A DNA stretch of 64,000 nt from Bacillota bacterium (GTDB lineage: Bacteria; Sysuimicrobiota; Sysuimicrobiia; Sysuimicrobiales; Segetimicrobiaceae): the NCBI GenBank assembly GCA_021324295.1, contig JAJPJJ010000032.1:12919-76918 (forward strand), read 5' to 3'. Of this stretch, positions 29,618 to 64,000 are shown piece after piece. The stretch's first letter is position 1; each line of letters starts with the position of its first letter. A program made the position numbers and the translations under genes. The notes beneath the pieces were generated by a model. The model was not told where the DNA came from, did not search any database, and was given only the letters and a program-made list of their open reading frames with translations.

Positions 29618-29684
29618 CAGGCGCGCCTGTCCCGCTGCCGTCGCGGCACGTGCGCCCCGGCGACGGCGCCTAGCCGCCGCGCCA

Positions 29685-32186: not shown

Positions 32187-32725
32187 GATGCCCCTCCTGA
32201 ACGCTGGGGCACGCGCGCGGCCGGGGGCCCGCCGTCCCCCGTCGGCTGGGGGGCGTCGCCCCGCGCCCGCGCGGCGGCCAGCTCGACCGCCTCGAGGATC
32301 TTGAGGTAGCCGGTGCACCGGCAGAGGTTGCCCGCAAGCCACGCCGACACGTCCTCGCGCGCGGGCGCGGGGTTCCGGTCCAGCAGCGCCTTGGCCGCGA
32401 GCAGCATCCCCGGCGTGCAGTACCCGCACTGCGCCGCCCCCAGCTCGGTGAACGCCACCTGCAGCGGGTGCAGCTCGCCGCCCCGCGCAAGGCCCTCGAT
32501 CGTGGTGATCTCGCGGTCCTGCACCTCCACGGGCAGGGTCAGGCAGCTCAGCACCGGCGTCCCGTCGACGAGCACCGTGCAGGTGCCGCACTCCCCGAGC
32601 TCGCACCCGTGCTTGGTCCCCGTAAGGCCCAGGTCTTCCCGGAGGACCTCGAGGAGCGTCTTGTGGACCGGGGCGATGACGTCGCGGGCCTCCCCGTTGA
32701 TGCGAAGCGTGAGGGCCACCTTCAT
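32183..32725 (-). CDS. (2Fe-2S)-binding small subunit of the Mo-hydroxylase (CoxS-like)
   Basis: ATG 32725..32723 verified in sequence. MKVALTLRINGE…, plant-type ferredoxin cysteines (CELGECGTCTV) and a second cluster (CGYCTPGM…NLCRCTGY). Confidence 0.85.
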   Translation of the reverse strand: MKVALTLRINGEARDVIAPVHKTLLEVLREDLGLTGTKHGCELGECGTCTVLVDGTPVLSCLTLPVEVQDREITTIEGLARGGELHPLQVAFTELGAAQCGYCTPGMLLAAKALLDRNPAPAREDVSAWLAGNLCRCTGYLKILEAVELAAARARGDAPQPTGDGGPPAARVPQRSGGAS

Positions 32726-32883
32726 GCACGTCGCCTCCCCGTCGCCCGCCCCACCCGTGGCGTGCGGCCGCGATCGGCGCCGGCCGCCCGGCACAGGGTA
32801 AGTACGCCGCCTGCCCGCAGGAGTCCCCTCCCCCCCACGAAAGTAGTCTGCGAGGCGCTGTCTACACGAGGAGGGATCGGACC

Positions 32884-45271: not shown

Positions 45272-45443
45272 AGGCGTGGGGGTGGGGCCTGCCCTCCGCT
45301 CCCAGCCGACGCGGTCTTCGCTTCGGAGCGGCGGGCGGGCGGAAATCGGCGCGCCGACCGGAGTCCGCGCCGGACAGGTCCCCGTCCCCCTCCCCGCGCC
45401 GCCACCGGATATCGGCAACGGAGCACTACCAGGGGGGCCAGCG

Positions 45444-46319
45444 ATGGCGACGGCGCTGACGTTCAAGGACTTCGCCGGGCAGAAGGCGATGTGGTGCCCG
45501 GGGTGCGGCGACTTCGCGGTCCTGCGCGCCCTGCAGGAGGCGTGCGCCCGGCTCGCCCTGCCCCCGCACCGCATCGTGCTGGTCTCCGGCATCGGCTGCT
45601 CCGGCAAGATCACGTCGTACTTCTCGTCCTACGGGTTCCACGTGCACCACGGACGGACGCTGCCGATCGCCACGGGGATCGCCCTCGCCAACCGCGACCT
45701 CGCGGTGATCGCCGCGGGCGGCGACGGAGACGGGTACGGGATCGGCCTCAACCACCTCATCCACGCGATCCGGCGCGACGTGGACCTCACCTACGTCGTG
45801 ATGGACAACGGGGTCTACGGCAACACGAAGGGCCAGACGTCCCCGACGACGGTGGCGGGGACCATCACCCCCTCGTCCCCCTCCGGGGCGGTCGAGGAGC
45901 CGGTCCACCCGCTCCGGCTCGCGCTCGCCGCCGGGATCACGTACCTCGCCCAGGGTGTGAGCAGCGACGTCCCGCAGCTCGTGCGGCTCATCGCAGGCGG
46001 CATCGAGCACCGCGGGTTCGCGCTCATCAACGTGCTGAGCCCCTGCCCGACCTACGACCGCCTGCGCACGTATCAGTGGTGGCGGGCGCGCCTCGTGAAC
46101 CTCGACGAGGAGCCGTCGTACCGCCCGGACTCGCGCGAGCTGGCGGTGGAGGCGGTCTCGAGCCGCGATGCGTCGATCGTCGGGCTCGTCTACCGGGCCC
46201 CGGGGCGGCCGTTCCAGAGCCGCCTGCCCCGCTTTCGCCCTTCGCCGCTCGCCTCCGAGCGGCTCGCGCCGGATGGGGAGCGGGCCCGGCGGATCCTCGA
46301 CGCGCGGTACGCCGTATGA
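45444..46319 (+). CDS. 2-oxoacid:ferredoxin oxidoreductase beta subunit (TPP-binding)
   Basis: ATG 45444 verified in sequence. …WCPGCGDFAVLRALQEA… and the TPP motif …GGDGDGYGIGLNHLIHAIRRDVDLTYVVMDNGVYGNTKGQ…. Confidence 0.85.
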   Translation: MATALTFKDFAGQKAMWCPGCGDFAVLRALQEACARLALPPHRIVLVSGIGCSGKITSYFSSYGFHVHHGRTLPIATGIALANRDLAVIAAGGDGDGYGIGLNHLIHAIRRDVDLTYVVMDNGVYGNTKGQTSPTTVAGTITPSSPSGAVEEPVHPLRLALAAGITYLAQGVSSDVPQLVRLIAGGIEHRGFALINVLSPCPTYDRLRTYQWWRARLVNLDEEPSYRPDSRELAVEAVSSRDASIVGLVYRAPGRPFQSRLPRFRPSPLASERLAPDGERARRILDARYAV

Positions 46320-47647
46320 GCGCCCCGAGCCCGCCCCCCGGCGACCCGGCCCTCTTCGTCGACCGCACGCTGGAGACGATGAGCCGGGAGGACCTCGTCG
46401 AGTACCAGTGGCAGCGGCTGGCCCCGATGCTCGGCCGGATCCTCGAAGGCAACGCCTTCTACGGCCGGAAGTGGGCCGGCACCGTGCGCCACGCGCGCGG
46501 GATCCGGGGGTGGGACGAGTTCCGGAGGCTCCCGTTCACCACGAAGGCCGAGCTCGCCCGCGACCAGGCGGAGCATCCGCCGTTCGGCACGAACCTGACG
46601 TACCCGCTGGAGCGCTACGTGCGCTTCCATCAGACGTCCGGGACGACCGGCCGCCCGATGCGCTGGCTGGATACGGCGGAATCGTGGGACTGGTGGATCC
46701 GCTGCTGGACCTTCGTATACCGGGCCGCCGGCGTCGGCGCCGGCGACCGGATCTTCTTTGCGTTCTCGTTCGGGCCGTTCGTCGGATTCTGGGCCGGGTT
46801 CGACGCGGCCCGGCGGGTCGGGGCGCTCGCGATCCCGGGCGGGGGGCTCGACTCGCGGCTGCGGGTACGGATGCTGGTCGAGACGCAGCCCACCGTGCTC
46901 GTGTGCACGCCATCCTACGCGCTGCGGCTGGCCGAGGTGGCGCGGGCGGGGGACGTCGATCCCGCGGCGCTCGGGATCCGGGTCACGATCCACGCCGGCG
47001 AGCCCGGGGCGAGCATCCCGGCGACCCGCCGGCGGATCGAGGCGGCCTGGGGCGCGCGGTGCATCGACCACACCGGGCTCACCGAGGTCGGCGCGACCGG
47101 GTTCACCTGCGCCGCGGGGCAGGTGCACCTCACCGAGAGCGAGTTCATCGCCGAGGTCCTCGACCCCGAGCGCGGGACGGTGAGCCCGGACGGCGAGGGC
47201 GAGCTGGTGCTGACCAACCTGGGACGGGAAGGCTCCCCGGTGGTCCGGTATCGCACCGGCGACCGCGTCCGGCTCAGCGTCGAGCGGTGCCCCTGCGGCC
47301 GCACGTTCGCGCGGATGGTCGGCGGCATCCTCGGACGAGCCGATGACATGCTGGTCGTGCGCGGGATGAACGTGTTCCCGAGCACCATCGAGGACGTCGT
47401 CCGGCGGTTTGCCTGTGTCGACGAGTTCCGGATCGAGGTGCGGCGGCGCGCGGAGATGGCGGACCTCCGCGTCGTGGTGGAGGTCGACGACGCGCGCCAC
47501 GGGCCGGAGGTGGTCGCGCGGACGCTCGCCGACCTGCGCGAGCAGCTCCGGCTCGCCTGCGGCATCCGAATCGACGCGCACGCGGTGACCGCGGGCACGC
47601 TCCCGCGATTCGAGCTGAAGGCCCGACGGGTCGTGCACATCGAGTAG
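46316..47647 (+). CDS. Phenylacetate-CoA-ligase-family (PaaK-like, AMP-forming) aryl/acyl-CoA ligase
   Basis: ATG 46316 overlaps the upstream TGA as ATGA. …RFHQTSGTTGRPMRWLDT… AMP-binding motif and PaaK-family N-/C-terminal blocks (…EYQWQRLAPMLGRILEGNAFYGRKW…). Confidence 0.85.
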   Translation: MSAPSPPPGDPALFVDRTLETMSREDLVEYQWQRLAPMLGRILEGNAFYGRKWAGTVRHARGIRGWDEFRRLPFTTKAELARDQAEHPPFGTNLTYPLERYVRFHQTSGTTGRPMRWLDTAESWDWWIRCWTFVYRAAGVGAGDRIFFAFSFGPFVGFWAGFDAARRVGALAIPGGGLDSRLRVRMLVETQPTVLVCTPSYALRLAEVARAGDVDPAALGIRVTIHAGEPGASIPATRRRIEAAWGARCIDHTGLTEVGATGFTCAAGQVHLTESEFIAEVLDPERGTVSPDGEGELVLTNLGREGSPVVRYRTGDRVRLSVERCPCGRTFARMVGGILGRADDMLVVRGMNVFPSTIEDVVRRFACVDEFRIEVRRRAEMADLRVVVEVDDARHGPEVVARTLADLREQLRLACGIRIDAHAVTAGTLPRFELKARRVVHIE

Positions 47648-47697: not shown

Positions 47698-48759
47698 CTA
47701 CGCTCGCGGGCGGTGGCGCGCCATGATCCGCTGAACCTCGTCCAGCGGCAGAGCGTGGACCGTGCCCCGCCGACCCTCCATCGTCTCCGCGGCGGTGAGC
47801 GCGTTCAAGATGGACTCTTCCACCGCCTCCGCGACCGCCTCGAAGAACGGATCCAGGTGCTCGTGGGGGATCATCTTCAGATCGTAGGGGCCCGCGGGCG
47901 GGTCCGGCATGTGGTTGCCGGTGGCAAACGCGAGGAACAGGTCGCCGCTGCTGTTGAACCCCATCCCCCCAACGCGCGCCAGCCCGGCTGTCGCCCGCCG
48001 GGCGAGCCGCGCGCACTGGACGGCCAGGAGCGGCGCGTCGGTGGCGATGACCACGATGATCGATCCTTTGGGGTCGGACGAGGACGCCTGCCGGCGTTCC
48101 AGCTCCATTCCGACGGGAACGCCGTCGATGCGCAGGTCGCGCAGCCGGCCGTAGTTGGCCTGCACCAGCGCGCCGATCGTGTACCGGCCGCTCGGGCTGT
48201 CGACGAGCCTGGACGACGTCCCGATGCCTCCCTTGCAGCCGTGGCACCGCATCCCGGTGCCGCCGCCGACGTTGCCCTCCTCGACCGGCCCCCCGTGGGC
48301 CGCGGCGAGCGCCTCGAGCGCGTGCTCCCGCGACACGGGGAACGCTTCGATGTCGTTTAGAAAGCCGTCGAAGGTCTCCGCCACCACCGGCAGGTGGAAC
48401 CGGTGGCTGTACCCATGCGCGATCGCGTACGCCACGAGCGCGTCGCGCACGATCCCGACCGCGTAGGTGTTGGTGATCCCGATCGGCGACCCGAGCAGGC
48501 CCGACTCCTCGATCCAGGGGATCCCGGTCATCTCCCCGTTCCCGTTGAACGAGTGGTAGCCCGCGAAGGCGTAGTCGGTCCAGATCGCGCCCTCCCGCGG
48601 CACGATCATGGTCACGCCGGTACGCGTGATGCGCGGCCGATCGTAGACGAGCGTCCGGTGGCCGACCAGCACCCCCGGCACGTCGGTGATCGCGTTGTAC
48701 GCCCCGGGGGGCATCCGGCCGATCGTGATTCCGAGGTCGCGCAGGCGGGCGCGGCCCAT
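47698..48759 (-). CDS. Peptidase S58 / DmpA-family (L-aminopeptidase D-Ala-esterase/amidase; Ntn-hydrolase)
   Basis: ATG 48759..48757 behind a GGGAGGAG RBS. …GITIGRMPPGAYNAITDVPGVLVGH… and the autoprocessing site …GNVGGGTGM…. The upstream 65 aa of the track ORF is Arg-rich noise. Confidence 0.75.
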   Translation of the reverse strand: MGRARLRDLGITIGRMPPGAYNAITDVPGVLVGHRTLVYDRPRITRTGVTMIVPREGAIWTDYAFAGYHSFNGNGEMTGIPWIEESGLLGSPIGITNTYAVGIVRDALVAYAIAHGYSHRFHLPVVAETFDGFLNDIEAFPVSREHALEALAAAHGGPVEEGNVGGGTGMRCHGCKGGIGTSSRLVDSPSGRYTIGALVQANYGRLRDLRIDGVPVGMELERRQASSSDPKGSIIVVIATDAPLLAVQCARLARRATAGLARVGGMGFNSSGDLFLAFATGNHMPDPPAGPYDLKMIPHEHLDPFFEAVAEAVEESILNALTAAETMEGRRGTVHALPLDEVQRIMARHRPRA

Positions 48760-51579: not shown

Positions 51580-52587
51580 CTACTGGACGATGATCACACC
51601 CTTCATGCCCTGCGGCACGTGGACGACGCACCAGTAGTTGTAGGTCCCCGGCTTCGTAAAGGTGAGCGAGTAGGCCTTCGGGCCGGGCACCACCGTGGGG
51701 GTCAGGATGCCCGAGTTGTAGTAGCCCTGGCCCTGGTGCGCCGCCCCGCCGAGCGGGCCCGCGGCCTTGGGGTTGAAGTAGAACCGGGGCGGCCCCTGGG
51801 GCTGCGGCTCGGGGACGATGAACGCCGGCGGCTGCTGGCCCCCGACGAACGTGATGGTGTGGATCTCGAACGGATCCTTCATCACCCACCGAACCGTGTC
51901 CCCGGCCTTGATGGTCAGGGCCTCGGGGGCGAACCGGATGATCGAACTCCGCGCCGGCGCGCTCCCGGGAAGCGGGATCGTGTACTCCGTGCCCCCCGGC
52001 CCCGCCGCCGTCGAGACCTTGCTGGCTTCGAGGGCCGCCCGCCCCCCCTGCAGCTCCGCCACCCTCTGCCGCTGCGCGATCTGCTCGTAGTCGGCCTGCG
52101 TCTTCGGCAGCGTGGCCCCCCGCGGCTGCACGATCACCGTGCCGGCCATCCCCGGGTGGATCAGGCAGTCGTACCGGTACCGGCCCGGCCGGGTGAACGT
52201 CAGCGTGTAGGTCTTCCCCTTGCCCTCCAGGAAGCCCGAGCTGGCGAGCCCCCGCCCCGCGTACGTCCGGCCGCCCTGCGGGAGCGCGATCAGCGGGTTG
52301 AACTCCAGCTTGCCGCCCGCCCGCGGGAGGGCGATGTCGGGCGGCCGGGCCCCGGACAGGAAGGATACGGTGTGCGCAAAGTCCGCGGTCATCGTCCACG
52401 TGATGGTATCGCCGGCGTCGATGGTAATCGTGCGCGGGAAGAAGTCCTGCGCCTGGATCCCGTGGTCGGGCGAGTCCGCGCCGATCCCCACCTTCCATGC
52501 CATGGGCGCCGCCTGCGCCGTACCGGACGCGGCGGCGATCCCCACCACGAGAGCGCATGCGAGCAGCCACGCCAAAGATCGGACCAT
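51580..52587 (-). CDS. Secreted tandem cupredoxin with two type-1 copper sites (amicyanin/plastocyanin-like)
   Basis: ATG 52587..52585 behind a GGAGGG RBS. Signal peptide MVRSLAWLLACALVVGIAAASGTAQA. Domain 1 ligands …FAHTV…YRYDCLIHPGMAG; domain 2 ligands …FEIHTI…YNYWCVVHVPQGMKG. Confidence 0.7.
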   Translation of the reverse strand: MVRSLAWLLACALVVGIAAASGTAQAAPMAWKVGIGADSPDHGIQAQDFFPRTITIDAGDTITWTMTADFAHTVSFLSGARPPDIALPRAGGKLEFNPLIALPQGGRTYAGRGLASSGFLEGKGKTYTLTFTRPGRYRYDCLIHPGMAGTVIVQPRGATLPKTQADYEQIAQRQRVAELQGGRAALEASKVSTAAGPGGTEYTIPLPGSAPARSSIIRFAPEALTIKAGDTVRWVMKDPFEIHTITFVGGQQPPAFIVPEPQPQGPPRFYFNPKAAGPLGGAAHQGQGYYNSGILTPTVVPGPKAYSLTFTKPGTYNYWCVVHVPQGMKGVIIVQ

Positions 52588-52739: not shown

Positions 52740-53645
52740 TCAGCGTGCCACCGTCTGCCGCAGCCGCTCCAGCCGCCGGAACTGCTCGTCCACGGTCAGC
52801 CCGAAGCGGTTCATGTCGAAGAACACCTCCGTGACGCCGAGGTCGGCGAGCCGCCGGAGGTCCTCCGCCACCTGCGCGTACGAGCCGGAGAGCGGCGGCC
52901 GCGGGTCGGGCGCCGGGTCGTCCCCGGGGGCCGTGTTGGTCCGGGCGACGATCGGCAGCGCGTCTGGATCGCGTCCGGCGGCCCGGGCGGCCCGGCGAAA
53001 GCGGTCGACGGCTCCCTCGAACGCGCTCCACTCCGCCGGGATCGCGTGCAGCCCGTCCCCGATGCGGGCGGCGCGTTCTACGGCCGCCGGCGCCTGCGCG
53101 GCGATGAGCACGGGCGGCCCACCCGGCTGCACCGGCTTCGGATTGATCTGCGACTCCGGGACCCGGTAGAAACGACCGCTGAAGCGAACCGGATCCGGTC
53201 CCCACGCGGCCCGGAGCGTGGCCACAAATTCGCCAAGCGCAGCGCCCCGCCGCTGCGTCGGCACGTTGACCGCCTCGAACTCCTCCTCCGACCACCCCAG
53301 GCCGAGCCCGGCGACCACGCGGCCGCCGCTGAACCGGTCGAGCGTGGCGAGCCGCTTGGCCAGCAGCACGGGGACGTGGAACGGGGCGACCAGGATGCTC
53401 GTGCCCAGCCTGATCCGCTCGGTATGCGCCGCGACGAACGTCAGCGTCTCGATCGGATCGTACGCGGTCGCGTACGATTCGGGCATGGGGCGGCCGGAGG
53501 ACCCGCGGGGGTGCAGCGGCCGCAGCAGACGCTCGAGCACCCACGCGGTCGCGTAGCCGCGCCGCTCCGCCTCCTGCGCGGCCCGGACCAGCGCCTCGGG
53601 CGAGGCGTGCACCCCTGTCTGCGGAAGCGCGAACCCGAACTCCAT
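52740..53645 (-). CDS. LLM-class (luciferase-like) F420/flavin-dependent oxidoreductase
   Basis: MEFGFALPQTGVHASPEALVRAAQEAERRGYATAWVLERLL…; luciferase-like TIM-barrel pattern. Confidence 0.75.
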   Translation of the reverse strand: MEFGFALPQTGVHASPEALVRAAQEAERRGYATAWVLERLLRPLHPRGSSGRPMPESYATAYDPIETLTFVAAHTERIRLGTSILVAPFHVPVLLAKRLATLDRFSGGRVVAGLGLGWSEEEFEAVNVPTQRRGAALGEFVATLRAAWGPDPVRFSGRFYRVPESQINPKPVQPGGPPVLIAAQAPAAVERAARIGDGLHAIPAEWSAFEGAVDRFRRAARAAGRDPDALPIVARTNTAPGDDPAPDPRPPLSGSYAQVAEDLRRLADLGVTEVFFDMNRFGLTVDEQFRRLERLRQTVAR

Positions 53646-53682
53646 CCGACCTCCCTCCAGCGCGCCCCTCGTTACCGGCGGC

Positions 53683-54441
53683 TCAACGAAACAGATCGCG
53701 CGACGGGTCCCGCAGCAGCCTGGCGGCGCCGCCTGGTCCTTGGGCGATCCGGATGCCGCGGATCAACACGGCCGGCGTCCCTTCATCGCACTGACCCTGC
53801 AGCAGGGTCGCCGCTGCGGCGAGCTCGTCCGCCACCGCCTCCACGGACGTCCTCAGCGTGTAGCCGTAGAGGTCGGGCCGACCCACGAGGCTCAGGAGCG
53901 GCTCCAGCCCCGCCGCGCCGATGCACACCCCCACCGCGCCCTCCCGGTGCGGCCGACCGTGGCTGTCGTTGATGATCACCGCGATCGGAACGCCGAACGC
54001 GGTGTGCACGGCGTCCCGGATCGCGCCCGCGGAGGCATCCGGATCCCGCGGCAGCAGGCTCACGACCTCGGGGCCGAGCCCGACGTTGCTGTGGTCCACC
54101 CCGGCGTTCGCGCAGATGAAGCCGAGACGGTGCTCGGTGATCAGCACACCGTGATGCGCCCGGACGACGCGGGTGGACTCGCGGAGGATCACCTCGACCA
54201 GACGGGGATCCTTGACCGCCTCGCGCGCGAGGCGGCGAGCCTCGTCCCCCGGCGTGACGGTCGCCAGGTCGACGAGGTGCCCTTCGGCCTTGCTGACGAC
54301 CTTCTGCGCGACGACCAGCACGTCCCCGTCGGCAGGCCGGAGTCCCGCCCTCTCGAGGGCCCGCACCAGCAGGTCGGGGAGGGACATCCCGGGCCGGACG
54401 TCGGGGAGGCCCGGAATGGCGACGAGGGTGGCCTCAGCCAT
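53683..54441 (-). CDS. cofE: Coenzyme F420-0:L-glutamate ligase (CofE), stand-alone form
   Basis: ATG 54441..54439 verified. …VLVVAQKVVSKAEGHLVDL… and …LGFICANAGVDHSNVG…AVIINDSHGRPHREGAVGVCIG… are CofE/FbiB N-domain signatures. There is no C-terminal nitroreductase-like FbiB domain. Confidence 0.8.
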   Translation of the reverse strand: MAEATLVAIPGLPDVRPGMSLPDLLVRALERAGLRPADGDVLVVAQKVVSKAEGHLVDLATVTPGDEARRLAREAVKDPRLVEVILRESTRVVRAHHGVLITEHRLGFICANAGVDHSNVGLGPEVVSLLPRDPDASAGAIRDAVHTAFGVPIAVIINDSHGRPHREGAVGVCIGAAGLEPLLSLVGRPDLYGYTLRTSVEAVADELAAAATLLQGQCDEGTPAVLIRGIRIAQGPGGAARLLRDPSRDLFR

Positions 54442-54518
54442 CGCGGGGCGGTGGCAGGCGCGCGATCCCGCCCGGCGCGGAGCTGCTCTCCGACGGGTGC
54501 GTCGCCCCGCGCCCCTCG

Positions 54519-55511
54519 TCACGCGGGCCCGGCGAGCCGCCGCAGCGCGGGGAGCACCTGCTCGCCGAGGAGCCCGATCGTGGCGTCCTGGTCTACGGAC
54601 GTGACCTGCACCGTCACGATGTCCGCGCCGACCTCGACCAACGGGCGGTAGATCTCGACCAGCTCCTCCGCCGTGCGAGCCCACGCGTACTTGCCGATGA
54701 TCTCGCGCCGGTCCATGGCATCGGCCCGTGCCCGGAGGACGGACGGGTCCACCTCGTCGAGCCGGCCTTCCACCCGCAGCCCTCGCCAGGCCCGGAGAGC
54801 CTGCCACGCCGCGCCCTCGTCCCGTGCCAGGATCGACCACCGCTGCGCGACCACCGTTGGCTTCGGCCGGCCCGCGTCGCGGGCGGCCCGCACACAGGGG
54901 TCGATCACCTGCTCCCGCGCGTCCTCCGGCGCCTTGACGCTGACGATGAGCCCGTCCGCGAGCCGGCCGGCCAGCGTGGCGGACTGGGGCCCGCCGGCCG
55001 CCATCCAGATCGGGACGCGCGCGAGCGGCGGGCTGTAGAGCCTGGCCGCCTGCGTCCGGTAGAACTTCCCGGCGAAGTCGAGCTTCTCGCCGTCCAGCAG
55101 GCGGCGCATGATCGCGATGGCCTCCGCCATGCGAGCACGCCGTTCCCTGGGACCCGGGAACTCCCATCCGAGCGGGCGCTCGTTGATCCCTTCGCCGCTC
55201 CCGACGCCGAGCGCAAACCGGCCGCCGGACAGCCGGTCGACGGCGGCCGCCGCCTGCGCGACCAGCGCCGGATGGTAGCGAAAGAGGGGACAGGTCACCG
55301 CGGTCGCGATCCGCGCGCGCCGTGTCCGGATGGCGAGCGCGCCGAGCCAGCTCCAGACGAAGGCCGAGGCCGAGGCGTCATCGACCCAGGGGTGGAAGTG
55401 ATCGGAGACCGCGAGCGCATCGAACCCGACCGCCTCCGCCCGAACCGCGTGCTCCAGGAGCACCTCGGGCTGGAATTGTTCGGTGCCGCAGAAGTAGGCA
55501 AACTGAGCCAT
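54519..55511 (-). CDS. LLM-class F420-dependent oxidoreductase of the glucose-6-phosphate-dehydrogenase (FGD) family
   Basis: MAQFAYFCGTEQFQPEVLLEHAVRAEAVGFDALAVSDHFHPW… closely parallels FGD1-type N-termini (…SDHFQPW…). Confidence 0.75.
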   Translation of the reverse strand: MAQFAYFCGTEQFQPEVLLEHAVRAEAVGFDALAVSDHFHPWVDDASASAFVWSWLGALAIRTRRARIATAVTCPLFRYHPALVAQAAAAVDRLSGGRFALGVGSGEGINERPLGWEFPGPRERRARMAEAIAIMRRLLDGEKLDFAGKFYRTQAARLYSPPLARVPIWMAAGGPQSATLAGRLADGLIVSVKAPEDAREQVIDPCVRAARDAGRPKPTVVAQRWSILARDEGAAWQALRAWRGLRVEGRLDEVDPSVLRARADAMDRREIIGKYAWARTAEELVEIYRPLVEVGADIVTVQVTSVDQDATIGLLGEQVLPALRRLAGPA

Positions 55512-55543
55512 CGTCTCCCCTTCCGGCCCGCCGCTCCTCAGAG

Positions 55544-56569
55544 CTAACGATCAGAGAGAGCCCCGGCGGTCCTTCCCCGCAGGTAGTCGCACCCGGCGTC
55601 GATGACCCGCCGCACCTCGGCCTCCTCGGTGGAGACCGGCTGGAGGATCGGGAGGCGCACGCCCGCCTCCGCGTAGGCCGCGAGGCGCTCGAGCACGTCG
55701 TCGGCCGTGCCCGCCAGCGTGAAGACGTCGAGGAGGTCGTCCCCCACCTGCCGGGAGGCGCCGGCGAGATCGCCGCGCCAGAACGCGTCGGCGATGCCGC
55801 GCTTCGCGGCGGGGTCCACGCCGCTTTCGGCGAGCACGCGATCCTCGATCACCGCGAGCTGGTAGACGACGAAGGGATCGCGCCGCATCGCGTCACGGGC
55901 CGCGTCCCGGTCACGGTCCACCGCGCAGAGGATGTACGCCGCGGCATCGACGGCGTCCGCGGGCCGGCCGTGCGCGACCGCTGCCGCCTGCACCGCGCCG
56001 ATCAGGCGCCGGCACGAGGCCGGCGATTCGACCGGGCGGGCGAGATATCCCTCGCAGAGCTCGCCGGCGAGCCGCAGCATGCGCGGCCCCCAACCGGCGA
56101 GGTAGACCGGGATCGGGCGCGCGGGCCGGACGGTGACCGCCACGTTCGTCAGGGCGAAGCGTCCGCCGGCCTCGGTTACCTTCTCCCCCTGCCAGAGGCG
56201 CCGCACCAGGGTGATGCTCTCCCGCATCGTCGCGATCGGGTGCGGGTACGCGATGCCCTGCTCCCGCAGCCGCGCCGGGTAGCCCGTCCCGAGCCCCATC
56301 GCCACGCGCCCGCCGCTCAGCTCGTCGAGCGTGGCCAGCGAGGATGCGATCAGGACCGGATGCCGGGTGTAGGGGTTGATGCAGCCCGTGCCGAGCCCCA
56401 GCCGCTCGGTGCTGACCGCGATCGCCGACAGGTAGGTCAGCGCGTCGCGGTTCCAGTACGCCTCGTGGAGCCAGCACGACTCGAAGCCGTGCCCCTCCGC
56501 GTACCGGGCGTACTCGACGGCCCGGCGGACCGGGAGGTTGCCGTTGAGACCGAGCGCGATGCGGCTCAC
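55544..56569 (-). CDS. LLM-class F420/flavin-dependent oxidoreductase (Mer-like)
   Basis: MSRIALGLNGNLPVRRAVEYARYAEGHGFESCWLHEAY…; luciferase-like pattern. Its start overlaps the upstream M16 gene by 4 nt. Confidence 0.75.
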   Translation of the reverse strand: MSRIALGLNGNLPVRRAVEYARYAEGHGFESCWLHEAYWNRDALTYLSAIAVSTERLGLGTGCINPYTRHPVLIASSLATLDELSGGRVAMGLGTGYPARLREQGIAYPHPIATMRESITLVRRLWQGEKVTEAGGRFALTNVAVTVRPARPIPVYLAGWGPRMLRLAGELCEGYLARPVESPASCRRLIGAVQAAAVAHGRPADAVDAAAYILCAVDRDRDAARDAMRRDPFVVYQLAVIEDRVLAESGVDPAAKRGIADAFWRGDLAGASRQVGDDLLDVFTLAGTADDVLERLAAYAEAGVRLPILQPVSTEEAEVRRVIDAGCDYLRGRTAGALSDR

Positions 56570-57888
56570 GCGGGGACCGCCGTGGCGACGGTGTACCCGT
56601 CCAACCGGAAGTAACGGCGGGCCGCCGCGCCGATCTGCTCGGGCGTCACGGCGCGGATGAGGCCGGGATAGCGGAGGAGGTAGTCGAGGCCCAGGTCGAA
56701 CAGCTCGATCTCCAGCAGCGCCTGCGCGATGCCGGCGTCGGTCTCCAGCCGCACCGCGAGCGACCCGGTCAGGTACTCCTGCGCATCATGCAGCTCGCCG
56801 TCACGCACAGGCTCCCGCTGCACGCCCGCGATCTCCCGCAGGATGCCCTCGATCGCGCGGTCCACGTTCCGCGGATTCACGCCGGCACGCACGACCCACG
56901 GCCCGGGCAGGAACCCTGCCTCCGCGTGGCTGAAGACGTAGTAAGCGAGCCCCTCCTCGTCGCGCACCGTCGCGCCGAGGCGCCCCATCAGCCCCAGGCG
57001 TCCGAGGATCAAGTCCGCCATCATCCCCGCGTAGTAATCCGGGCTCGTGCGGCTGAACCCCGGCACCCCCAGCACGATATCGGCCTGACTCTTGCCGGGG
57101 ATCGCAAGCGTGCGGCGCTGCACGGCGGGCGCGGGGGCCGCCGGAGGGATCACGACCGGCCCTGGCGGCGGGGCGCCCCGCCAGCCGTCCAAAGCGGAGG
57201 CGAGGTGCTCCAGGATCCGCGGCGCCGCCACGTCGCCGACGATCGCCACAACGGCCTTCTCGGGGCGGTACCAGGTCCGGTGGAAGGCGACGAGATCGTC
57301 GCGCGTGATCGCCGCCACGGTCTCCTCCTCGCCTTCGGGCGTTCGGCGATGAGGGTGGGCGGACGAATACGCGGCCGCGCGGAACGCCTTCTCGGCGGCC
57401 GCGCGGGTATCGTGGCGGGCCTCGCGGATCCCGGTGACGATCCGGGCCCGCTGCTTCTCGATCTCGTCTGGGGGAAACGTCGGTCGGACGAGCACCTCCG
57501 CGAGCAGATCGATGAGCTGCGTGACGTCCTCGGCCAGGCACCGCGCGGCGAACGACACACCCTCGATGTCCGCGCGAACGCTCAGGCTGGCGCCGAGCGA
57601 GTCCAGCATCAGCGCCAGGCTCTCCGATGTGTGCATCGTGGTCCCGCGCGTCACCATCGACGCGGCGAACATCGCGAGGCCCTCCCGGCCGGGCGGGTCG
57701 TGCAGCGCGCCGCCGTCGAGGTACCCCCGGATCGCCACGGACGGGGTAGCCCGGGTCTCGCGGATCAGGGCGACGGCTCCCCCGCCGAAGGCCTGCCGCA
57801 CGACCGACTCGGGCGTGATCGGGACCGCGGGAGCGCGGACCCCGGTGCGCGGGTCGAGGCGAGGGCCGGGCTCACGCATCGACGGCAC
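56566..57888 (-). CDS. M16-family peptidase, non-catalytic partner subunit
   Basis: M16 two-domain architecture but no HxxEH motif. Overlaps the preceding M16 gene by 17 nt. Confidence 0.75.
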   Translation of the reverse strand: MPSMREPGPRLDPRTGVRAPAVPITPESVVRQAFGGGAVALIRETRATPSVAIRGYLDGGALHDPPGREGLAMFAASMVTRGTTMHTSESLALMLDSLGASLSVRADIEGVSFAARCLAEDVTQLIDLLAEVLVRPTFPPDEIEKQRARIVTGIREARHDTRAAAEKAFRAAAYSSAHPHRRTPEGEEETVAAITRDDLVAFHRTWYRPEKAVVAIVGDVAAPRILEHLASALDGWRGAPPPGPVVIPPAAPAPAVQRRTLAIPGKSQADIVLGVPGFSRTSPDYYAGMMADLILGRLGLMGRLGATVRDEEGLAYYVFSHAEAGFLPGPWVVRAGVNPRNVDRAIEGILREIAGVQREPVRDGELHDAQEYLTGSLAVRLETDAGIAQALLEIELFDLGLDYLLRYPGLIRAVTPEQIGAAARRYFRLDGYTVATAVPA

Positions 57889-59284
57889 CCCGGCCGGGGG
57901 CGGCCCCTGCCCCGCCAGCGGTGGATCGCCGCTCGGACGCGTCGCTGCGGGCCACGCCGGCGGCGGTCGAGATCGCCACCGGCTCCTCGGCGGCGCGATC
58001 GGGGAAGTACCAGCCGACCGTCCGGTTGCGGTCGGTGAACGTGCGCGCGGCCACCTCCAGGATCTGGGCCGGCGTTACGGCCAGCAGGCGGTCCCAGAAA
58101 CGCGCGAGGAACTCGCCGCCCGCCACGATCTCCGTGCTGCCGAGCAGCACGGCCTGCTGCGAGACCCCGTCGCAGGCGTACACCCACTGGGCGCGGGCCT
58201 GCTTGCGCACCTTGTCCAGCTCGCCGGCGCCCACCGGTTCTTCGCTGATGCGGCGGAGCTCCGCGAGGATCGCCTCCTCGACCTGCTCGGGCGGCACGCC
58301 CGGCCGCAGCGTGGCGCCGATCTCCAAGAGCGTGGGATCCAGCGACGGCCGGAACGCGCTCCCCACCTCGACGGCAAGCTGCCGCTCCACGAGGGCCCGG
58401 TACAGCCGGCTGCTGCGCGCGCCGATCGCTTCGCCGCCGAAGACGCCGGGTCCCTTGAACCCCGACAGCACGCCGTCCACCAGGAGCAGCGGGAAGAAGT
58501 CCGGGTGGGAGGCCGCGGGCGCGTGGAACGCCATCTGCACGATGGGAACAGCTCCCCCCGGCCGGCGGAGCACCACGCGCCGTTCGCCCTCCTGGGGAGG
58601 CTCGACGGTGCGGACCGGCGGCGGCGGAGGCCCGGCGGGGATCGGCTCGAACGCCGCGCGGATCTCCCGCAGCAGCGCGTCGCTGTCGAAGTCCCCGACG
58701 GCCACCACCACGGCGTTGTTCGGCGTGTAGTACGTGCGGTAGTGACGGATCAGGTCGTCGCGCGTGATCGCCCGCAGGTCGCTCTTGTAGCCGATGACCG
58801 CATGCCGGTAGGAGTGCACCCGGTAGGCGGCGGCTTCCACCTCTTCGTACAGCGCATAATCCGGGTTGTTCTCGGCGCCCTCCCGCTCGGAGATGATCAC
58901 CGTGCGCTCGCTCTCGACTTCATCCGGCTCGAACAGGCTGTTGACCATGCGGTCCGATTCGATCCGGACGCCGAGCCCCACGTGCGCCGCGGGCAGGGTT
59001 TCGAAGTAGGCGGTGAAGTCCTTCCACGTGAACCCGTTCCAGGTGCCGCCGTGGCGGTTGACGAGGCGCGAGAACTCCCCCTTGCCCAGCGTCGGGGTGC
59101 CCTTGAACAGCATGTGCTCCACCCAGTGGGAGATGCCGGTGATCCCCGGCACCTCGTTCCGGCTCCCGACGCGATACCACGCCCAGAACGTGGCCACCGG
59201 GGCCGTGTGCACCTCGCGCAGCAGCACCGCGAGGCCGTTGGGGAGCACGGCCCGGACCGTGGGCGTCGGTGGTGTCGGGGTCAT
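57872..59284 (-). CDS. M16-family zinc peptidase, catalytic subunit (inverzincin HxxEH)
   Basis: ATG 59284..59282 verified. …GISHWVEHMLFKGT… carries the HxxEH zinc motif. The upstream 64 aa of the track ORF is low complexity. Confidence 0.8.
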   Translation of the reverse strand: MTPTPPTPTVRAVLPNGLAVLLREVHTAPVATFWAWYRVGSRNEVPGITGISHWVEHMLFKGTPTLGKGEFSRLVNRHGGTWNGFTWKDFTAYFETLPAAHVGLGVRIESDRMVNSLFEPDEVESERTVIISEREGAENNPDYALYEEVEAAAYRVHSYRHAVIGYKSDLRAITRDDLIRHYRTYYTPNNAVVVAVGDFDSDALLREIRAAFEPIPAGPPPPPVRTVEPPQEGERRVVLRRPGGAVPIVQMAFHAPAASHPDFFPLLLVDGVLSGFKGPGVFGGEAIGARSSRLYRALVERQLAVEVGSAFRPSLDPTLLEIGATLRPGVPPEQVEEAILAELRRISEEPVGAGELDKVRKQARAQWVYACDGVSQQAVLLGSTEIVAGGEFLARFWDRLLAVTPAQILEVAARTFTDRNRTVGWYFPDRAAEEPVAISTAAGVARSDASERRSTAGGAGAAPGRGAVDA

Positions 59285-59870: not shown

Positions 59871-59898
59871 ATTATAGCGTATAGCGCGTAGAGGCCAA
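59871..59898 (-). promoter_or_regulatory. Near-consensus sigma70-type promoter driving the peroxiredoxin gene (and possibly the long minus-strand run)
   Basis: On the minus strand: TTGGCC (59898..59893), a 16-nt spacer, then a perfect TATAAT (59876..59871), inside an AT-rich patch. About 60 nt upstream of the Prx start. Confidence 0.35.
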
Positions 59899-59964: not shown

Positions 59965-61320
59965 CTAGGCCACCTCCGCGAACCGTTCCAGGAGGTGCGC
60001 CATCAACACGATCGTCTCCCGAAAGTCGCTCGCGCGGACGTTCTCGTCGGGCGCGTGGGCCCGGCTGTTCCAGTACCCGCCGCCCACGCTCACGAGGGGG
60101 ATGCCCAGGACCGGGCCGAGGTCGTGCATCGGGCCGGTCCCCGCAGACGTCGGGTAGAGCAGCGTCTCCCGGCCGGTCGCGTGGGCGACGGCGTCGCGCA
60201 CCGTCTCCACGAACGGGTCCTCCAGGTCCGTGCGCCACGGGAACTCCGCGGCGAGCACGCGGAGCCCGACATCGGTGAACCCATGGGCGTCCAGGTGCCG
60301 GCGGACAGCCTGGGCGACCTCGTGCGGGTCCTGGTCGGGGACGAGGCGGAAGTCCACCTTGGCGCGCGCGACGCGGGGCAGCACGGTCTTCGCGCCCTGC
60401 CCCGTGTATCCGCCCCACAGGCCGCAGATCGTGCACGTCGGCGCGAGCAGGAGCTGCCGCACCGCGGCCGAAGCGTCCGGGTCGCCGATCAGCCGCCGCA
60501 CGCCGACCTGCTGCTGCACGGCGCTCACGACGTCCGGCGGGATCCGACGGATCGCCTCCTCCTCGGCGGGCGTCGGGGGGCGGACCCGGTCGTAGTGGCC
60601 GGGGATCAGGACGCGCCCGGACGGGTCTTTGAGCGTGCTGAGGGCCCACGCCAGGCGGAAGCCGGCGCCTTCGATGATCGCGCCGAGCGACGAGTGCAGG
60701 TCGACGTTCGCCGTGGTGGCCTCGAGCTCCAGGTAGCACAGGCCCTTCATCCCGCAGACGATGTGCATCCGCTCCTCGTGGTCGCGCTCGCCATACTCCC
60801 AGACGCACGCGTCGGCCCGCAGCACCTCGACGTGCGCCCGCGTGATGGCGCCGAAGTGCACGCTCCCGATCTCCTCCTCGCCCTCGACCGCGAACTTCAC
60901 GCGACAGGGGAGCGCGCCCCGGGCGGCGCGTAGCGCCCGCAGCGCGGCGATGCGGGTCACGAGGTCCCCCTTGTTGTCGGAGACGCCCCGCCCGAGCAGC
61001 AGGCCGTCCCGCTCCGTCAGATCGAACGGCGGGACGCTCCACTCGTCGAGCGGCTCCGCGGGCTGCACATCGTAGTGGTTGTAGAAGAGGAGCGTCCTCG
61101 GCGACCGCCCGTCGAACTCCGCGGTGACGACCGGGTTCGCGCCCTCGTGCTCGAGCACGTGCACGTGCCCGCCCGCCTCCCGCAACAGCTCGCTCGTCGC
61201 CTGCACCGCCTCGGGGATGCCCTGCCGCTGCGCCGCGACCGAGGGAATCCGCACCAGCCGGCGCAGATCCGCAACTGCCCTGGGGATCTCCCGATCGACG
61301 CACGCCCGAAGCGCCTCCAC
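59965..61320 (-). CDS. M20-family metallopeptidase (ArgE/DapE/dipeptidase or desuccinylase type)
   Basis: …LLFYNHYDVQPAEPLDEWSVPPFDLTERDGLLLGRGVSDNKGDL… with the H…D…E metal-ligand pattern of M20. Confidence 0.8.
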   Translation of the reverse strand: MEALRACVDREIPRAVADLRRLVRIPSVAAQRQGIPEAVQATSELLREAGGHVHVLEHEGANPVVTAEFDGRSPRTLLFYNHYDVQPAEPLDEWSVPPFDLTERDGLLLGRGVSDNKGDLVTRIAALRALRAARGALPCRVKFAVEGEEEIGSVHFGAITRAHVEVLRADACVWEYGERDHEERMHIVCGMKGLCYLELEATTANVDLHSSLGAIIEGAGFRLAWALSTLKDPSGRVLIPGHYDRVRPPTPAEEEAIRRIPPDVVSAVQQQVGVRRLIGDPDASAAVRQLLLAPTCTICGLWGGYTGQGAKTVLPRVARAKVDFRLVPDQDPHEVAQAVRRHLDAHGFTDVGLRVLAAEFPWRTDLEDPFVETVRDAVAHATGRETLLYPTSAGTGPMHDLGPVLGIPLVSVGGGYWNSRAHAPDENVRASDFRETIVLMAHLLERFAEVA

Positions 61321-61497
61321 GCCACGCCCTCCGTGACCCTCGTCGTGTCCCCTCAGAGATTGGCGGGCCGCGGCGCGTTTCCCTCGCCGCGCGCAGCGCC
61401 GTCCCCGGTCGCCGGGGAGGGAGCCTGTCCGGCGGGGCGGAATCTTGTGGGGGCGCCGCGCACCGGCGATTCGCGCCAGGCAGAGAGGTTGAACACG

Positions 61498-62550
61498 ATG
61501 GACACCCTCCCCGTCCTGCAGTCGCTATCCAATGCCTTTGGTGTCTCCGGCTTCGAAGACGACGTCCGGGGCGTCATCGAGCGACACGTCGCCCCGTTCG
61601 CCGACAGCGTGCGGACCGATGTGCTCGGCAACCTGATCGTGACCCGCCACGGACGACGCGAGCGCACGCTGATGCTCGATGCGCACATGGACGAGGTCGG
61701 GTTGATGATCAACCACGTGGAGGACGACGGGTTCCTGCGCTTCACGACGATCGGCGGCTGGGATCCGCGGGTCCTCGTCGCCCACGCGGTGACGATCCGC
61801 ACGCGATCCGGCGCGACGGTGCGCGGGGTGATCGGCAGCCTCCCGCCCCACATCCTCACCGCCGAGGAGCGCGAGAAGCCGGTTCCGGTGGACGGCATGT
61901 TCATCGACGTGGGTGCCCGCTCCGCCGAGGAGGTCACCCGCTGGGGCATCCGGCTCGGGGATCCGGCCGTGCTCGCGTACCCGTGCGAGCCCCTGCGGGA
62001 CGGGACCGTCCTCGGTAAGGCGCTCGACGACCGCGCCGGGTGCGCCGTGATGGTAGCCGTCCTCGAGCGCCTGGCGAGGGAGACGCTCGACCTGACGCTC
62101 GTGTGCAACTTCGCGGCCGGCGAGGAGGTCGGCGCGCGCGGCGCCCGGACGGCCGCGTACCAGATCATGCCTGAGCTGGCCCTGGCGATCGAAGGGACCA
62201 TCGCCGCGGACGTGCCCGGCGTCTCCGGGCCCCGCCGGCTGACCCGCCTGGGGGCGGGCCCTGCGATCACGCTCGCCGACCGGTCCCTGATCGTGAGCCC
62301 CCGGTTCGTCCAGGCGCTGGAGCGCGTCGCCGAGGAGCACCGCATCCCGTACCAGTACAAGCGGCCGGCCTTCGGGGGAACCGATGCGGGCGCGATCCAC
62401 ACCAGCGGCGGCGGCGTCCTGGCCGGTGCCGTCTCGGTGCCGTGCCGCTACATCCATGCCCCGCTCGGCCTGCTGCGCCTCAGCGATGTCGAGGAGACCA
62501 TCCGGCTGGTGACGGCGTTCGTCGCGGATGCGGACCGGCTCTTCGAGTGA
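61498..62550 (+). CDS. M42-family aminopeptidase (FrvX/glutamyl-aminopeptidase-like)
   Basis: ATG 61498 after an AGAGAGG RBS. MDTLPVLQSLSNAFGVSGFEDDVRGVIERHV…LMLDAHMDEVGLMI…KALDDRAGCAVM… are M42 signatures. Confidence 0.8.
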   Translation: MDTLPVLQSLSNAFGVSGFEDDVRGVIERHVAPFADSVRTDVLGNLIVTRHGRRERTLMLDAHMDEVGLMINHVEDDGFLRFTTIGGWDPRVLVAHAVTIRTRSGATVRGVIGSLPPHILTAEEREKPVPVDGMFIDVGARSAEEVTRWGIRLGDPAVLAYPCEPLRDGTVLGKALDDRAGCAVMVAVLERLARETLDLTLVCNFAAGEEVGARGARTAAYQIMPELALAIEGTIAADVPGVSGPRRLTRLGAGPAITLADRSLIVSPRFVQALERVAEEHRIPYQYKRPAFGGTDAGAIHTSGGGVLAGAVSVPCRYIHAPLGLLRLSDVEETIRLVTAFVADADRLFE

Positions 62551-62578
62551 CCCCGCGCTCCCCGTCCCCGGGTATGCG

Positions 62579-63433
62579 GTGCGCCCCATCACCGACCGGG
62601 AGACCCTACGCCGGTGCGAGGACCTCCAGATGGCCGTCTGGGGCATGGGCGACCGGGAGACGGTCCCCTTCAATCAGCTCCTGGCGGCGACGGCGGCGGG
62701 CGGGCTCGTCATCGGCGCCTTCGACGCGGCCGGCGCCCTGGTCGGCTTCGCGTACGCGTTCCCCGGATACCGCGAGGGGCGCCCGCTGTGGTACTCGCAC
62801 ATGACCGGCGTGCTCCCGGCGCATCGAGGTCGCGGGCTCGGGCTCCGCCTCAAATGTGCCCAGCGCGACGCGGCCCTCGCCGCGGGCGTCGAGCGAATCG
62901 TCTGGACCTACGACCCGTTGCAGGCGGCGAACGCGCGCTTCAACGTCGGCCGGCTGGGGGTGGTGGCGTCGCGATACCACGTGGACTACTACGGCGCGAT
63001 GACGGACGCGATCAACGAGGGGCTGCCGAGCGACCGGCTCGAGGTGGATTGGTGGCTCCGCTCGCCGCGGGTGGCGGCCCGGATCGCCGCCGCGCTCGCG
63101 GGACGCCCGCGTCCGCCGCGGCTCGCCGGCGGCCCATGGGCGCTGGCCGCAACGGGCGCGGGCTCCCTGGCGCCGCCTGGGCCCCCGGCCCTCGACCTGT
63201 CCGCGCCTGCGATCCTCGCCGAGATCCCGCCCGACGTGGCGCGCCTCAAGAGGGAGGCCCCGGCGACTGCGGTCCGGTGGCGGGAGGCCACGCGGGCCGT
63301 GCTCCGGCACTACTTCGGCCGCGGGTACGCCGTCACCGAGGCGGGCCGGTATCCCGGCGAGGACGGCCCCCGCGCCGTGTACCTTCTGACCACCGGGGGG
63401 AACCCACCCGCGGAGGGAGGCGCGCCCGCATGA
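62579..63433 (+). CDS. GNAT-family N-acyltransferase
   Basis: GTG 62579, just after the M42 stop. Acetyl-CoA-binding motif …HMTGVLPAHRGRGLGLRLKCAQRDAALAAG…. The track ORF from 62528 overlaps the M42 gene. Confidence 0.55.
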   Translation: MRPITDRETLRRCEDLQMAVWGMGDRETVPFNQLLAATAAGGLVIGAFDAAGALVGFAYAFPGYREGRPLWYSHMTGVLPAHRGRGLGLRLKCAQRDAALAAGVERIVWTYDPLQAANARFNVGRLGVVASRYHVDYYGAMTDAINEGLPSDRLEVDWWLRSPRVAARIAAALAGRPRPPRLAGGPWALAATGAGSLAPPGPPALDLSAPAILAEIPPDVARLKREAPATAVRWREATRAVLRHYFGRGYAVTEAGRYPGEDGPRAVYLLTTGGNPPAEGGAPA

Positions 63434-64000
63434 AGATCGAACGCGTCGAGCTGCGGCAGATCCGCATGCCGTACACGTTTCCCTTCGAGACGGCGGTGGA
63501 CCGCGACACCGACAAGGACTGCCTGCTGGTCCGGGCGTGGGCGGACGGCCTGTCCGGCTGGGGCGAGTCGCCGGTGTCGGCGAAGCCCTTCTATAAGGAA
63601 GAGACCGTCGACACGGCGTGGCCGATCCTCACGCAGTTCCTCATCCCGCGGGTACTGGGCCTCAGGTTCGCGCATCCCCATGAGGTCGCGGACCGGCTGC
63701 GTCCGGTCCGCCGGAACTACCTCGCCAAGGCGGGACTCGAGGCCGCCGCGTGGGACATCTACGCACAGGCACACGGCGTCTCGCTCGCCCGCGCGCTCGG
63801 CGGCAGCCGCACGCGGATCGCGGTCGGGATGAGCGTCGGGATCGAGCCTACGATCGACGCGCTGCTCGGCCGGATCGAGACCTGGCTCGCCCAGGGCTAC
63901 CGGCGGATCAAGGTGAAGATCAAGCCGGGGTTCGACCGCGAAGTCGTCGCGGCGATCCGGCGCCGGTTCGGGCCGATCCCGCTGCAGGTCGACGCCAACA
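63430..64000 (+). CDS. Enolase-superfamily enzyme (o-succinylbenzoate synthase / N-succinyl-amino-acid racemase / MLE subgroup), 5' part; continues past the window edge
   Basis: ATG 63430 overlaps the GNAT stop as ATGA. MKIERVELRQIRMPYTFPFETAVDRDTDKDCLLVRAWADGLSGWGES… and …IKVKIKPG…LQVDAN… (KxK motif) are enolase-superfamily markers. Not in the ORF track because there is no stop in the window. Confidence 0.7.
   Translation, partial: MKIERVELRQIRMPYTFPFETAVDRDTDKDCLLVRAWADGLSGWGESPVSAKPFYKEETVDTAWPILTQFLIPRVLGLRFAHPHEVADRLRPVRRNYLAKAGLEAAAWDIYAQAHGVSLARALGGSRTRIAVGMSVGIEPTIDALLGRIETWLAQGYRRIKVKIKPGFDREVVAAIRRRFGPIPLQVDAN

Follow-up and report, generated by a model that had tools for sequence, protein, structure and literature searches.

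Chloroflexi-type cof neighborhoods (fno/fgd - cofE - fbiE - cofD - cofC, plus FDOR, LLHT, or Mer-like genes; PMC8498797, Figure 10) have a stand-alone CofE (F420-0:gamma-glutamyl ligase), a gene of the Fno or FGD family directly 5' of cofE, and luciferase-like oxidoreductases (LLMs) of the Mer-like and TIGR03619 types. The legend counts Fgd, Fno, FDOR, LLHT, and Mer as additional F420-related genes in the cof-context maps (PMC8498797). In mycobacteria, the homologous ligase domain is the N-terminal part of FbiB, which also has a C-terminal dehydro-F420-0 reductase domain. M16B heterodimeric peptidases (3amj/3ami; mitochondrial processing peptidase alpha/beta) are encoded by adjacent genes for proteins of ~440-470 aa, with M16 and M16_C domains in each, the HxxEH motif in one subunit only, and overlapping reading frames. 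Lexapeptide and cacaoidin clusters are a precedent for active and inactive M16 proteins paired with an F420H2-dependent LLM (PMC8068269). In this study, we analyzed a 64,000-nucleotide stretch of contig JAJPJJ010000032.1 (the window), in which an M16 peptidase pair is followed on the same strand by an F420 island around cofE (Table 1).

The reading that we favor, and consider likely, is that the M16 peptidase and the F420 island are two functionally separate modules joined by clade-specific gene order. The known kind of system is the cofE-centered F420 neighborhood, and what is added is an example in an under-studied lineage. True reading frames were picked by third-position guanine-plus-cytosine content (GC3); GC content of the window is 70-77%. 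The six genes of the locus have GC3 of 0.90-0.94, and all are on the minus strand, read from high to low coordinates. Starting with the neighboring peroxiredoxin gene, the order is prx, M16A (HWVEH), M16B (no HxxEH), LLM341, LLM330, cofE, and LLM301. A first-pass annotation had placed LLMs, CofE, and an M16 pair together on one strand, and both the coordinates and the families were confirmed. Intergenic gaps are 49 nt between prx and M16A, 32 nt between LLM341 and LLM330, 77 nt between LLM330 and cofE, and 37 nt between cofE and LLM301; LLM301 is followed by an AT-richer gap of 152 nt and then by a cupredoxin gene. The M16B stop and the LLM341 start overlap by 4 nt. This overlap had been described correctly except for its sequence, which reads GTGA in the window and not ATGA. 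The reported 17-nt overlap between M16A and M16B is obtained only from the GTG start of M16B at 57888; gene callers on identical contigs chose the ATG at 57879, which gives an overlap of 8 nt.

Only three LLM genes were found among the annotated open reading frames (ORFs) of the window, and all of them are within 3.9 kb around cofE. Because the only LLMs of the window surround cofE, and F420 genes flank cofE in most other loci examined, the clustering is not due to chance. The existence of an F420 block was further upheld by comparison of the LLMs with TIGR03557 and TIGR03619, both of which gave scores above curated cutoffs. A sigma-70-like promoter match 5' of prx agrees with the consensus at 10 of 12 positions and is the sole match in 8.7 kb (shuffled sequences average 0.2). 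This site is a possible start of the whole co-directional string, which is probably co-transcribed. One terminator-like match is located inside the 3' end of cofE; shuffled sequences average 1.5, so there is no excess. The prx gene is 5' of the M16 pair in all in-lineage loci, and opposite-strand genes intervene in three of them (L010, L013, and L022); prx is a syntenic neighbor and not a constant operon member.

Table 1. Features of the M16-F420 locus and of related loci. Positions refer to the window unless a locus label (L) precedes them.
Feature	Position	Strand	Family match or other evidence
Sigma-70-like promoter match, TTGGCC-16-TATAAT, 5' of prx	59871..59898	minus	Consensus match only
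prx, thiol peroxidase (Bcp/PrxQ-type peroxiredoxin), 156 aa	59334..59804	minus	PF00578 3e-37
M16A, catalytic subunit of M16B-type heterodimeric zinc peptidase, 470 aa	57872..59284	minus	PF00675 + PF05193
M16B, non-catalytic partner, 440 aa (GTG 57888) or 437 aa (ATG 57879)	56566..57888	minus	PF00675 + PF05193
LLM341, Mer-like F420-type luciferase-like oxidoreductase, 341 aa, GTG start	55544..56569	minus	PF00296
LLM330, TIGR03557 (FGD/Adf family) F420-dependent LLM, 330 aa	54519..55511	minus	TIGR03557 235.2 bits (cutoff 210.4)
CofE, F420-0:gamma-glutamyl ligase, single domain, 252 aa	53683..54441	minus	TIGR01916 257.1 bits (cutoff 180.65)
LLM301, TIGR03619 (Rv2161c family) F420-dependent LLM, 301 aa	52740..53645	minus	TIGR03619 231.9 bits (cutoff 166.9)
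Secreted two-domain cupredoxin (plastocyanin/amicyanin-like)	51580..52587	minus	PF00127, two matched stretches; N-terminal signal-like sequence
Fno (NADPH-dependent F420 reductase) in the slot 5' of cofE	L007:11011-11694; L020:~2100-2741; L040:~7330-7992; L102:3080-3763		L007 gene (Fno/npdG, 227 aa): TIGR01915 208 bits (cutoff 150); L020 and L040 homologues 67% and 74% identical to L007 Fno
TIGR03560 LLM in ANGP1 metagenome-assembled genomes	L022:1385-2320; L010:1542-2474	minus	287 bits

Proteins identical to those of the window are encoded on contigs from soil metagenomes and from metagenome-assembled genomes (MAGs; GCA_037024495.1 and others). Among genome records, those closest to the window are MAGs labeled "Armatimonadota bacterium," "bacterium," or "Bacillati bacterium ANGP1," with 69-81% identity in LLM341. 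The organism is a member of an uncultured, non-actinobacterial, high-GC lineage, and the non-actinobacterial affiliation that had been read from the CofE type fits these labels in a general way.

CofE spans positions 3-244 of the 244 positions of TIGR01916 (PF01996, 3e-73) and has no further domain. When compared with the FbiB model NF009810, it matches only positions 12-243 of 449; unlike mycobacterial FbiB, it ends with the CofE model and has no C-terminal dehydro-F420-0 reductase domain (TIGR03553). The best 120 CofE relatives listed (70-100% identity) are all 232-280 aa long and have PF01996 only, in agreement with the earlier observation that the FbiB nitroreductase domain is missing. Stand-alone CofE is genuine and fixed in the lineage. 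A metagenome scan with CofE retrieved 80 loci, including 75 from outside the lineage (CofE 43-61% identical). It is most improbable that CofE is only a decaying or truncated paralogue, with a full FbiB at another site in the genome, which would mean that the block is not the real tail-ligase locus of the organism. Such a paralogue would be compatible with the absence of cofD and cofC next to cofE, and our search was limited to the window and in-lineage loci. However, the match of CofE to its family model is full length and exceeds the curated cutoff, the GC3 of the gene is as expected for coding sequence, the 120 listed relatives share its size and single domain, and CofE is stand-alone in all 75 out-of-lineage loci retrieved.

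The first-pass annotation also proposed that F420 tailing is uncoupled from dehydro-F420 reduction in this organism, and this proposal was not sustained. Of the 75 out-of-lineage loci, 11 have an FbiE-like gene close to their stand-alone cofE. Because an FbiE-like reductase is thus encoded beside cofE in many other stand-alone cases, an unfused CofE says little about uncoupling. TIGR03553 is the best or joint-best match of these FbiE-like genes (level with NF009810), with scores of 127-142 bits that are below cutoff. In Thermomicrobium roseum, dehydro-F420 reduction is carried out by a free-standing FbiE (PMC8498797). The 64-kb window and the in-lineage loci (~10 kb around cofE) gave no match to CofD, CofC, or FbiE in tblastn searches with sequences from L034, L036, L041, L051, L053, and L056, and cofD, cofC, and any fbiE would have to be located elsewhere in the genome in this lineage.

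Gene order around cofE outside the lineage is useful for interpreting the island. Among 55 loci with at least 700 nt upstream, the gene directly 5' of cofE encodes Fno in 22, CofC in 11, and FGD in nine. One recurrent theme is Fno - CofE - (TIGR03618 FDOR) - FbiE-like nitroreductase - CofD - CofC - Mer-like LLM. A second theme is FGD - CofE - CofD - CofC with a divergent TIGR03619 LLM, and some loci have the order CofD - CofC - CofE. Matches to FGD, CofD, CofC, Fno, and TIGR03618 FDOR are above NCBIfam cutoffs; the FbiE-like nitroreductase and the Mer-like LLM are best-match calls below cutoff. The operon that runs from Fno to the Mer-like LLM was seen in L034, L041, L056, L068, L091, and others (for example, L041:7325-12490), and its terminal Mer-like LLM has sub-threshold scores of 166-180 bits on NF002619. 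The combination of a Mer-like LLM, an F420-reducing enzyme, stand-alone CofE, and a TIGR03619 LLM is a recurrent cofE neighborhood, and the F420 block of the window is a rearranged fragment of the widespread operon fno/fgd - cofE - (FDOR) - fbiE - cofD - cofC - Mer-like LLM. It differs from Chloroflexi-type cof neighborhoods in three ways: cofD, cofC, and fbiE are not adjacent, so the canonical cof operon is not present; a TIGR03557 LLM occupies the upstream slot in place of a bona fide FGD or Fno; and the block directly follows an M16 peptidase pair. No M16 gene was found in the retrieved flanks of the 75 out-of-lineage cofE loci, 43 of which have more than 1.5 kb 5' of cofE.

The slot directly 5' of cofE is occupied by LLM330 in the window. 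The first-pass annotation called this protein FGD-like, and its family (TIGR03557) agrees with that description, but LLM330 resembles the F420-dependent alcohol dehydrogenase Adf at least as closely as it resembles FGD. Its closest solved structures are Adf (1rhc, 1e-55) and FGD (5lxe, 4e-53; also 3b4y), which are about equal, and it scores 185 bits on the FGD equivalog TIGR03554, compared to a cutoff of 420. Alignment with FGD indicated that the catalytic His, Trp, and Glu are kept, K259 is replaced by R, R283 is replaced by Y, and K198 is shifted by one position. In Mycobacterium tuberculosis FGD1, the phosphate-binding residues are Lys198, Lys259, and Arg283. Assignment of LLM330 as FGD through its active site was therefore rejected: the catalytic residues are kept, the phosphate pocket is not, and the test does not fix the substrate. 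In sister genomes, the same slot holds Fno (Table 1). Because of this equivalence, LLM330 may be an F420-reducing dehydrogenase. Occurrence of Fno, FGD, or a TIGR03557 LLM 5' of cofE is a natural exchange between putative F420-reducing enzymes.

LLM341 is most similar to archaeal Mer (F420-dependent methylene-tetrahydromethanopterin reductase) in both family and structure comparisons. Its best NCBIfam match is Mer NF002619 (229.4 bits, cutoff 276), followed by TIGR03555 (218.8 bits, cutoff 348.7), and the closest solved structure is Mer 8qq8 (1.5e-58). It differs from archaeal Mer in that it is under both equivalog cutoffs and no tetrahydromethanopterin genes were seen; in many bacterial cof operons, the last gene encodes a comparable Mer-like LLM with a sub-threshold score. 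LLM341 orthologues are 68-100% identical, and there is a sharp drop to the next homologues, which are at most 49% identical. The nearest outgroup homologue with context (L012, 48% identity) is preceded by genes for UbiA and an Rce1-like protease instead of M16 genes, and gave no functional clue.

LLM301 is a variable member of the island. It follows cofE only in the window and L007, and it is absent from this position in L008, L009, L013, L014, and L021. A TIGR03619 LLM also flanks fgd-cofE in the out-of-lineage locus L051. Genes 3' of the island vary among relatives and include cupredoxin, glyoxalase, or an opposite-strand ABC transporter. The cupredoxin gene has its own AT-richer upstream region and is directly after cofE in L021; it is the downstream boundary and is outside the F420 island.

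The M16 pair has the features of M16B-type heterodimers: both subunits have M16 and M16_C domains, and HxxEH is present in one only. The zinc motif HWVEH is at residue 53 of M16A, and the aligned segment in M16B is AMFAA. The best solved relatives of M16A are 3amj/3ami ("zinc peptidase active subunit"), at 2e-65. M16A is 78-88% identical across the lineage, in more than 100 clusters. The pair differs from other M16B heterodimers in that F420 genes come after it in this clade only. Sister M16 pairs (61% identity) are found in four independent contexts with the order malate dehydrogenase - M16A - M16B - hypothetical protein, and there is no F420 gene among them. The M16 pair is a cytoplasmic heterodimer whose two genes belong to the conserved core of the wider clade, and its role is most likely general oligopeptide processing. 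We infer that it is functionally independent of the F420 genes.

The surroundings of the pair are rich in peptidases, including S58/DmpA, M20, and M42 peptidases, together with GNAT and an MR_MLE-family enzyme (window positions 47698-48759, 59965-61320, ~61480-62550, 62528-63433, and 63430-64000). An M28 peptidase gene is just outside the window, next to this region. The neighborhood suggests a region of peptide/dipeptide catabolism in which the M16 pair fits naturally.

Gene content between M16B and cofE varies inside the lineage. Window proteins were mapped by tblastn onto related loci, and called genes on public contigs were read. M16A-M16B and cofE, the flanks, are present in every in-lineage locus that is long enough, and the middle is variable. 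The order M16A-M16B-Mer-LLM330-CofE is found in the window, L009, L013, and L022 (and in L010 as far as the contig reaches), and M16A-M16B-Mer-Fno-CofE is found in L007, L020, and L040. In L008, the Mer-like LLM alone is between M16B and cofE. In L014-16 and L021, M16B is followed directly by cofE with gaps of 17-34 nt. After M16B of L021, nine bases (GTGACCCGC) match the LLM341 start of L007 and L020; we considered them as a possible deletion scar, and they are too short to separate an ancestral from a derived state.

The 4-nt overlap between M16B and LLM341 is kept in all nine loci that have this LLM (eight GTGA, one ATGA). The first-pass annotation had treated loss of the M16-LLM overlap in relatives as decisive, and the outcome was divided: the overlap persists wherever LLM341 is present, and close relatives without the LLM have M16B directly before cofE. 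Fno/CofE and LLM330/CofE overlaps with GTGA or TGATG also occur in relatives (the gap in the window itself is 77 nt), and unrelated pairs on the same contig (MR_MLE/GNAT and PaaK-like/POR-beta) overlap by 4 nt too. Because other and unrelated pairs overlap alike, the overlap is house style and not a mark of the M16B/LLM pair. It is explained by compact operon style and clade-specific synteny, and it is not evidence for a shared pathway.

Two groups of relatives show other arrangements. In the ANGP1 MAGs, an opposite-strand TIGR03560 F420-dependent LLM (Table 1) and a 387-aa gene of no known family are located between prx and M16A. Because of these intervening opposite-strand genes, M16A in the ANGP1 MAGs cannot share the prx promoter. 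The deeper relative L102 (63% GC) has the order M16-Fno-CofE, with identities of 57% for M16A, 50% for M16B, and 64% for CofE. Its MR_MLE, glyoxalase, and metallo-beta-lactamase (MBL) neighbors are shared with the in-lineage loci, a sign that synteny of the region was inherited. M16A and M16B of L102 were called as one 811-aa product (L102:465-3080), and an in-frame TAG splits off the M16B C-terminus as a 52-aa "ORF." The 811-aa call reflects either a genuine fusion that carries a sequencing error or a gene in decay. The 52-aa ORF between M16 and fno was considered as a peptide and rejected; it is the C-terminal end of M16B after the in-frame TAG.

Active and inactive M16 proteins beside F420-type LLMs resemble both PqqF/G and the lexapeptide/cacaoidin systems (PMC8068269). 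By this analogy, which had been raised for PqqF/G in the first-pass annotation, the window would encode maturation of a peptide-derived cofactor or of a ribosomally made peptide with post-translational modifications (RiPP): the M16 heterodimer would cut a leader peptide, as PqqF/G or LxmP1/LxmP2 do, and an F420H2-dependent LLM would reduce a residue, as LxmJ does. Apart from the precedent, conservation of the M16B/LLM overlap in nine of nine LLM341 loci is in its favor. The analogy was not supported by gene content. The gaps of 49, 32, 77, 37, and 152 nt hold no credible small ORF, and a small-ORF search for a precursor peptide across the cluster gave only spurious high-GC ORFs overlapping real genes, which confirms the earlier statement that no precursor was found. 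In relatives, the only small ORF seen by the M16 genes is the cut-off M16B C-terminus of L102. Neither the cluster nor the annotated ORFs of the window include radical-SAM, HopA1, CypD, kinase-like, or pqqA-E genes, and searches of these ORFs for the PqqB, PqqC, PqqD, and radical-SAM families were negative. Features of class V lanthipeptide clusters (precursor, HopA1, CypD-like protein, phosphotransferase, and MSMEG_4879-family reductase; list from PMC8068269) are likewise lacking in the cluster and these ORFs. The score on PqqF TIGR02110 is 44.9 bits (cutoff 320), the pair does not have the features of PqqF/PqqG, and the LLMs are of other subfamilies than LxmJ, reaching at most 122 bits on TIGR03564 (cutoff 234). 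Furthermore, the LLM is dispensable in close relatives, and the M16 pair is highly conserved (78-88%) and has sister pairs among genes of the tricarboxylic acid cycle. The RiPP/PQQ reading is already largely refuted, and we regard it as having hardly any chance of being correct.

A real functional or regulatory link between the M16 pair and the F420 genes could take the form of a stress-responsive operon, driven from the prx promoter, in which peroxide defense is coupled to peptide turnover and F420-dependent detoxification, or peptide breakdown could supply glutamate for the F420 tail. We consider such a link unlikely. The fact that M16B, F420 genes, and cofE are co-directional and either overlap or are closely spaced in L102 as well as in all in-lineage loci is consistent with it, as are the promoter-like site 5' of prx, the lack of a detected internal terminator, and the F420 LLMs on both sides of the M16 pair in ANGP1 MAGs. 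On the other hand, the association is absent from the 75 other cofE loci and from the four sister M16 contexts, and there is no biochemical rationale joining an M16 endopeptidase and gamma-glutamyl chemistry. Synteny across the lineage extends over the entire 15-kb region (M42, M20, prx, substrate-binding protein, and MBL), and M16-cofE adjacency is therefore no better kept than adjacency to obviously unrelated neighbors. It is very doubtful that the M16 heterodimer is functionally tied to F420 metabolism in this clade, for example by processing or regulating an F420 enzyme or by acting with CofE on a peptide-like substrate. If there were a tie of this kind, it would explain why co-transcription from M16B to cofE survives from 100% to 64% CofE identity, and it would fit the swaps between M16B and cofE (Mer-like LLM, TIGR03557 LLM, Fno, or nothing).

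Several observations weigh against our interpretation of two separate modules and of an F420 island. M16B and cofE keep a common direction and short gaps over a range of 100% to 64% CofE identity, with L102 at the lower end; this linkage outlasts many neutral adjacencies and leaves room for a selective reason such as co-regulation. In ANGP1 relatives, the M16 pair has F420 LLMs on either side, including a fourth LLM of the TIGR03560 family. For LLM330, an F420-reducing role is argued from slot equivalence only, and the FGD phosphate pocket is not conserved in it. Finally, the DNA examined yielded no cofC, cofD, or fbiC, which tempers the case for F420 production by this genome. Nevertheless, nothing found indicates a shared pathway for the peptidase and F420 genes, and two modules brought together by inherited gene order remain our preferred interpretation.

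Other parts of the window encode further metabolic functions. Positions 1696-11350 contain TctC/TctA tricarboxylate-type transporter genes, an Amidohydro_2 enzyme, an NMT1-like binding protein, a bicupin, a UbiD-family decarboxylase (6104-7525), and a UbiX-like flavoprotein (10538-11350); together, these genes resemble a cluster for (de)carboxylation of aromatic acids. Large and FAD subunits of a molybdenum hydroxylase (CO-dehydrogenase/xanthine-dehydrogenase family) are encoded a few kb from a CoxG-like gene (23468-24010 and 28601-32729), and a nitronate monooxygenase-like gene (27424-28614) is beside the hydroxylase. At 33675-35273, 3 nt separate a 186-aa ORF with FAD_binding_4 only from a subsequent 344-aa ORF without a Pfam match, and a stop codon or frameshift may have divided a single FAD-linked oxidase here. 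Positions 43442-47647 encode 2-oxoacid:ferredoxin oxidoreductase alpha and beta subunits and then a PaaK-like AMP-binding ligase, with a 4-nt overlap, which resembles an indolepyruvate/arylpyruvate oxidoreductase arrangement. The same trio also borders the cluster in L013 and L001.

In the pathway that we propose for the F420 island, CofE would add gamma-linked glutamates to F420-0, using GTP. The product of the gene directly 5' of cofE (a TIGR03557 LLM here, Fno in sister genomes, and Fno or FGD in other phyla) would supply F420H2, and the Mer-like and TIGR03619 LLMs would spend it on their substrates. The practical value of these findings is modest. The M16 link is best explained by inherited gene order, and it opens no new cofactor or RiPP pathway. 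Given the slot swap, the TIGR03557 enzyme is a candidate for an F420-reducing dehydrogenase, and Mer-like LLMs, which are recurrent in bacterial cof neighborhoods, may merit biochemical attention. For an uncultured soil lineage about which little is known, the analysis records a set of F420 genes (stand-alone cofE, Fno, and LLMs from four or more subfamilies), which suggests that this lineage uses F420.

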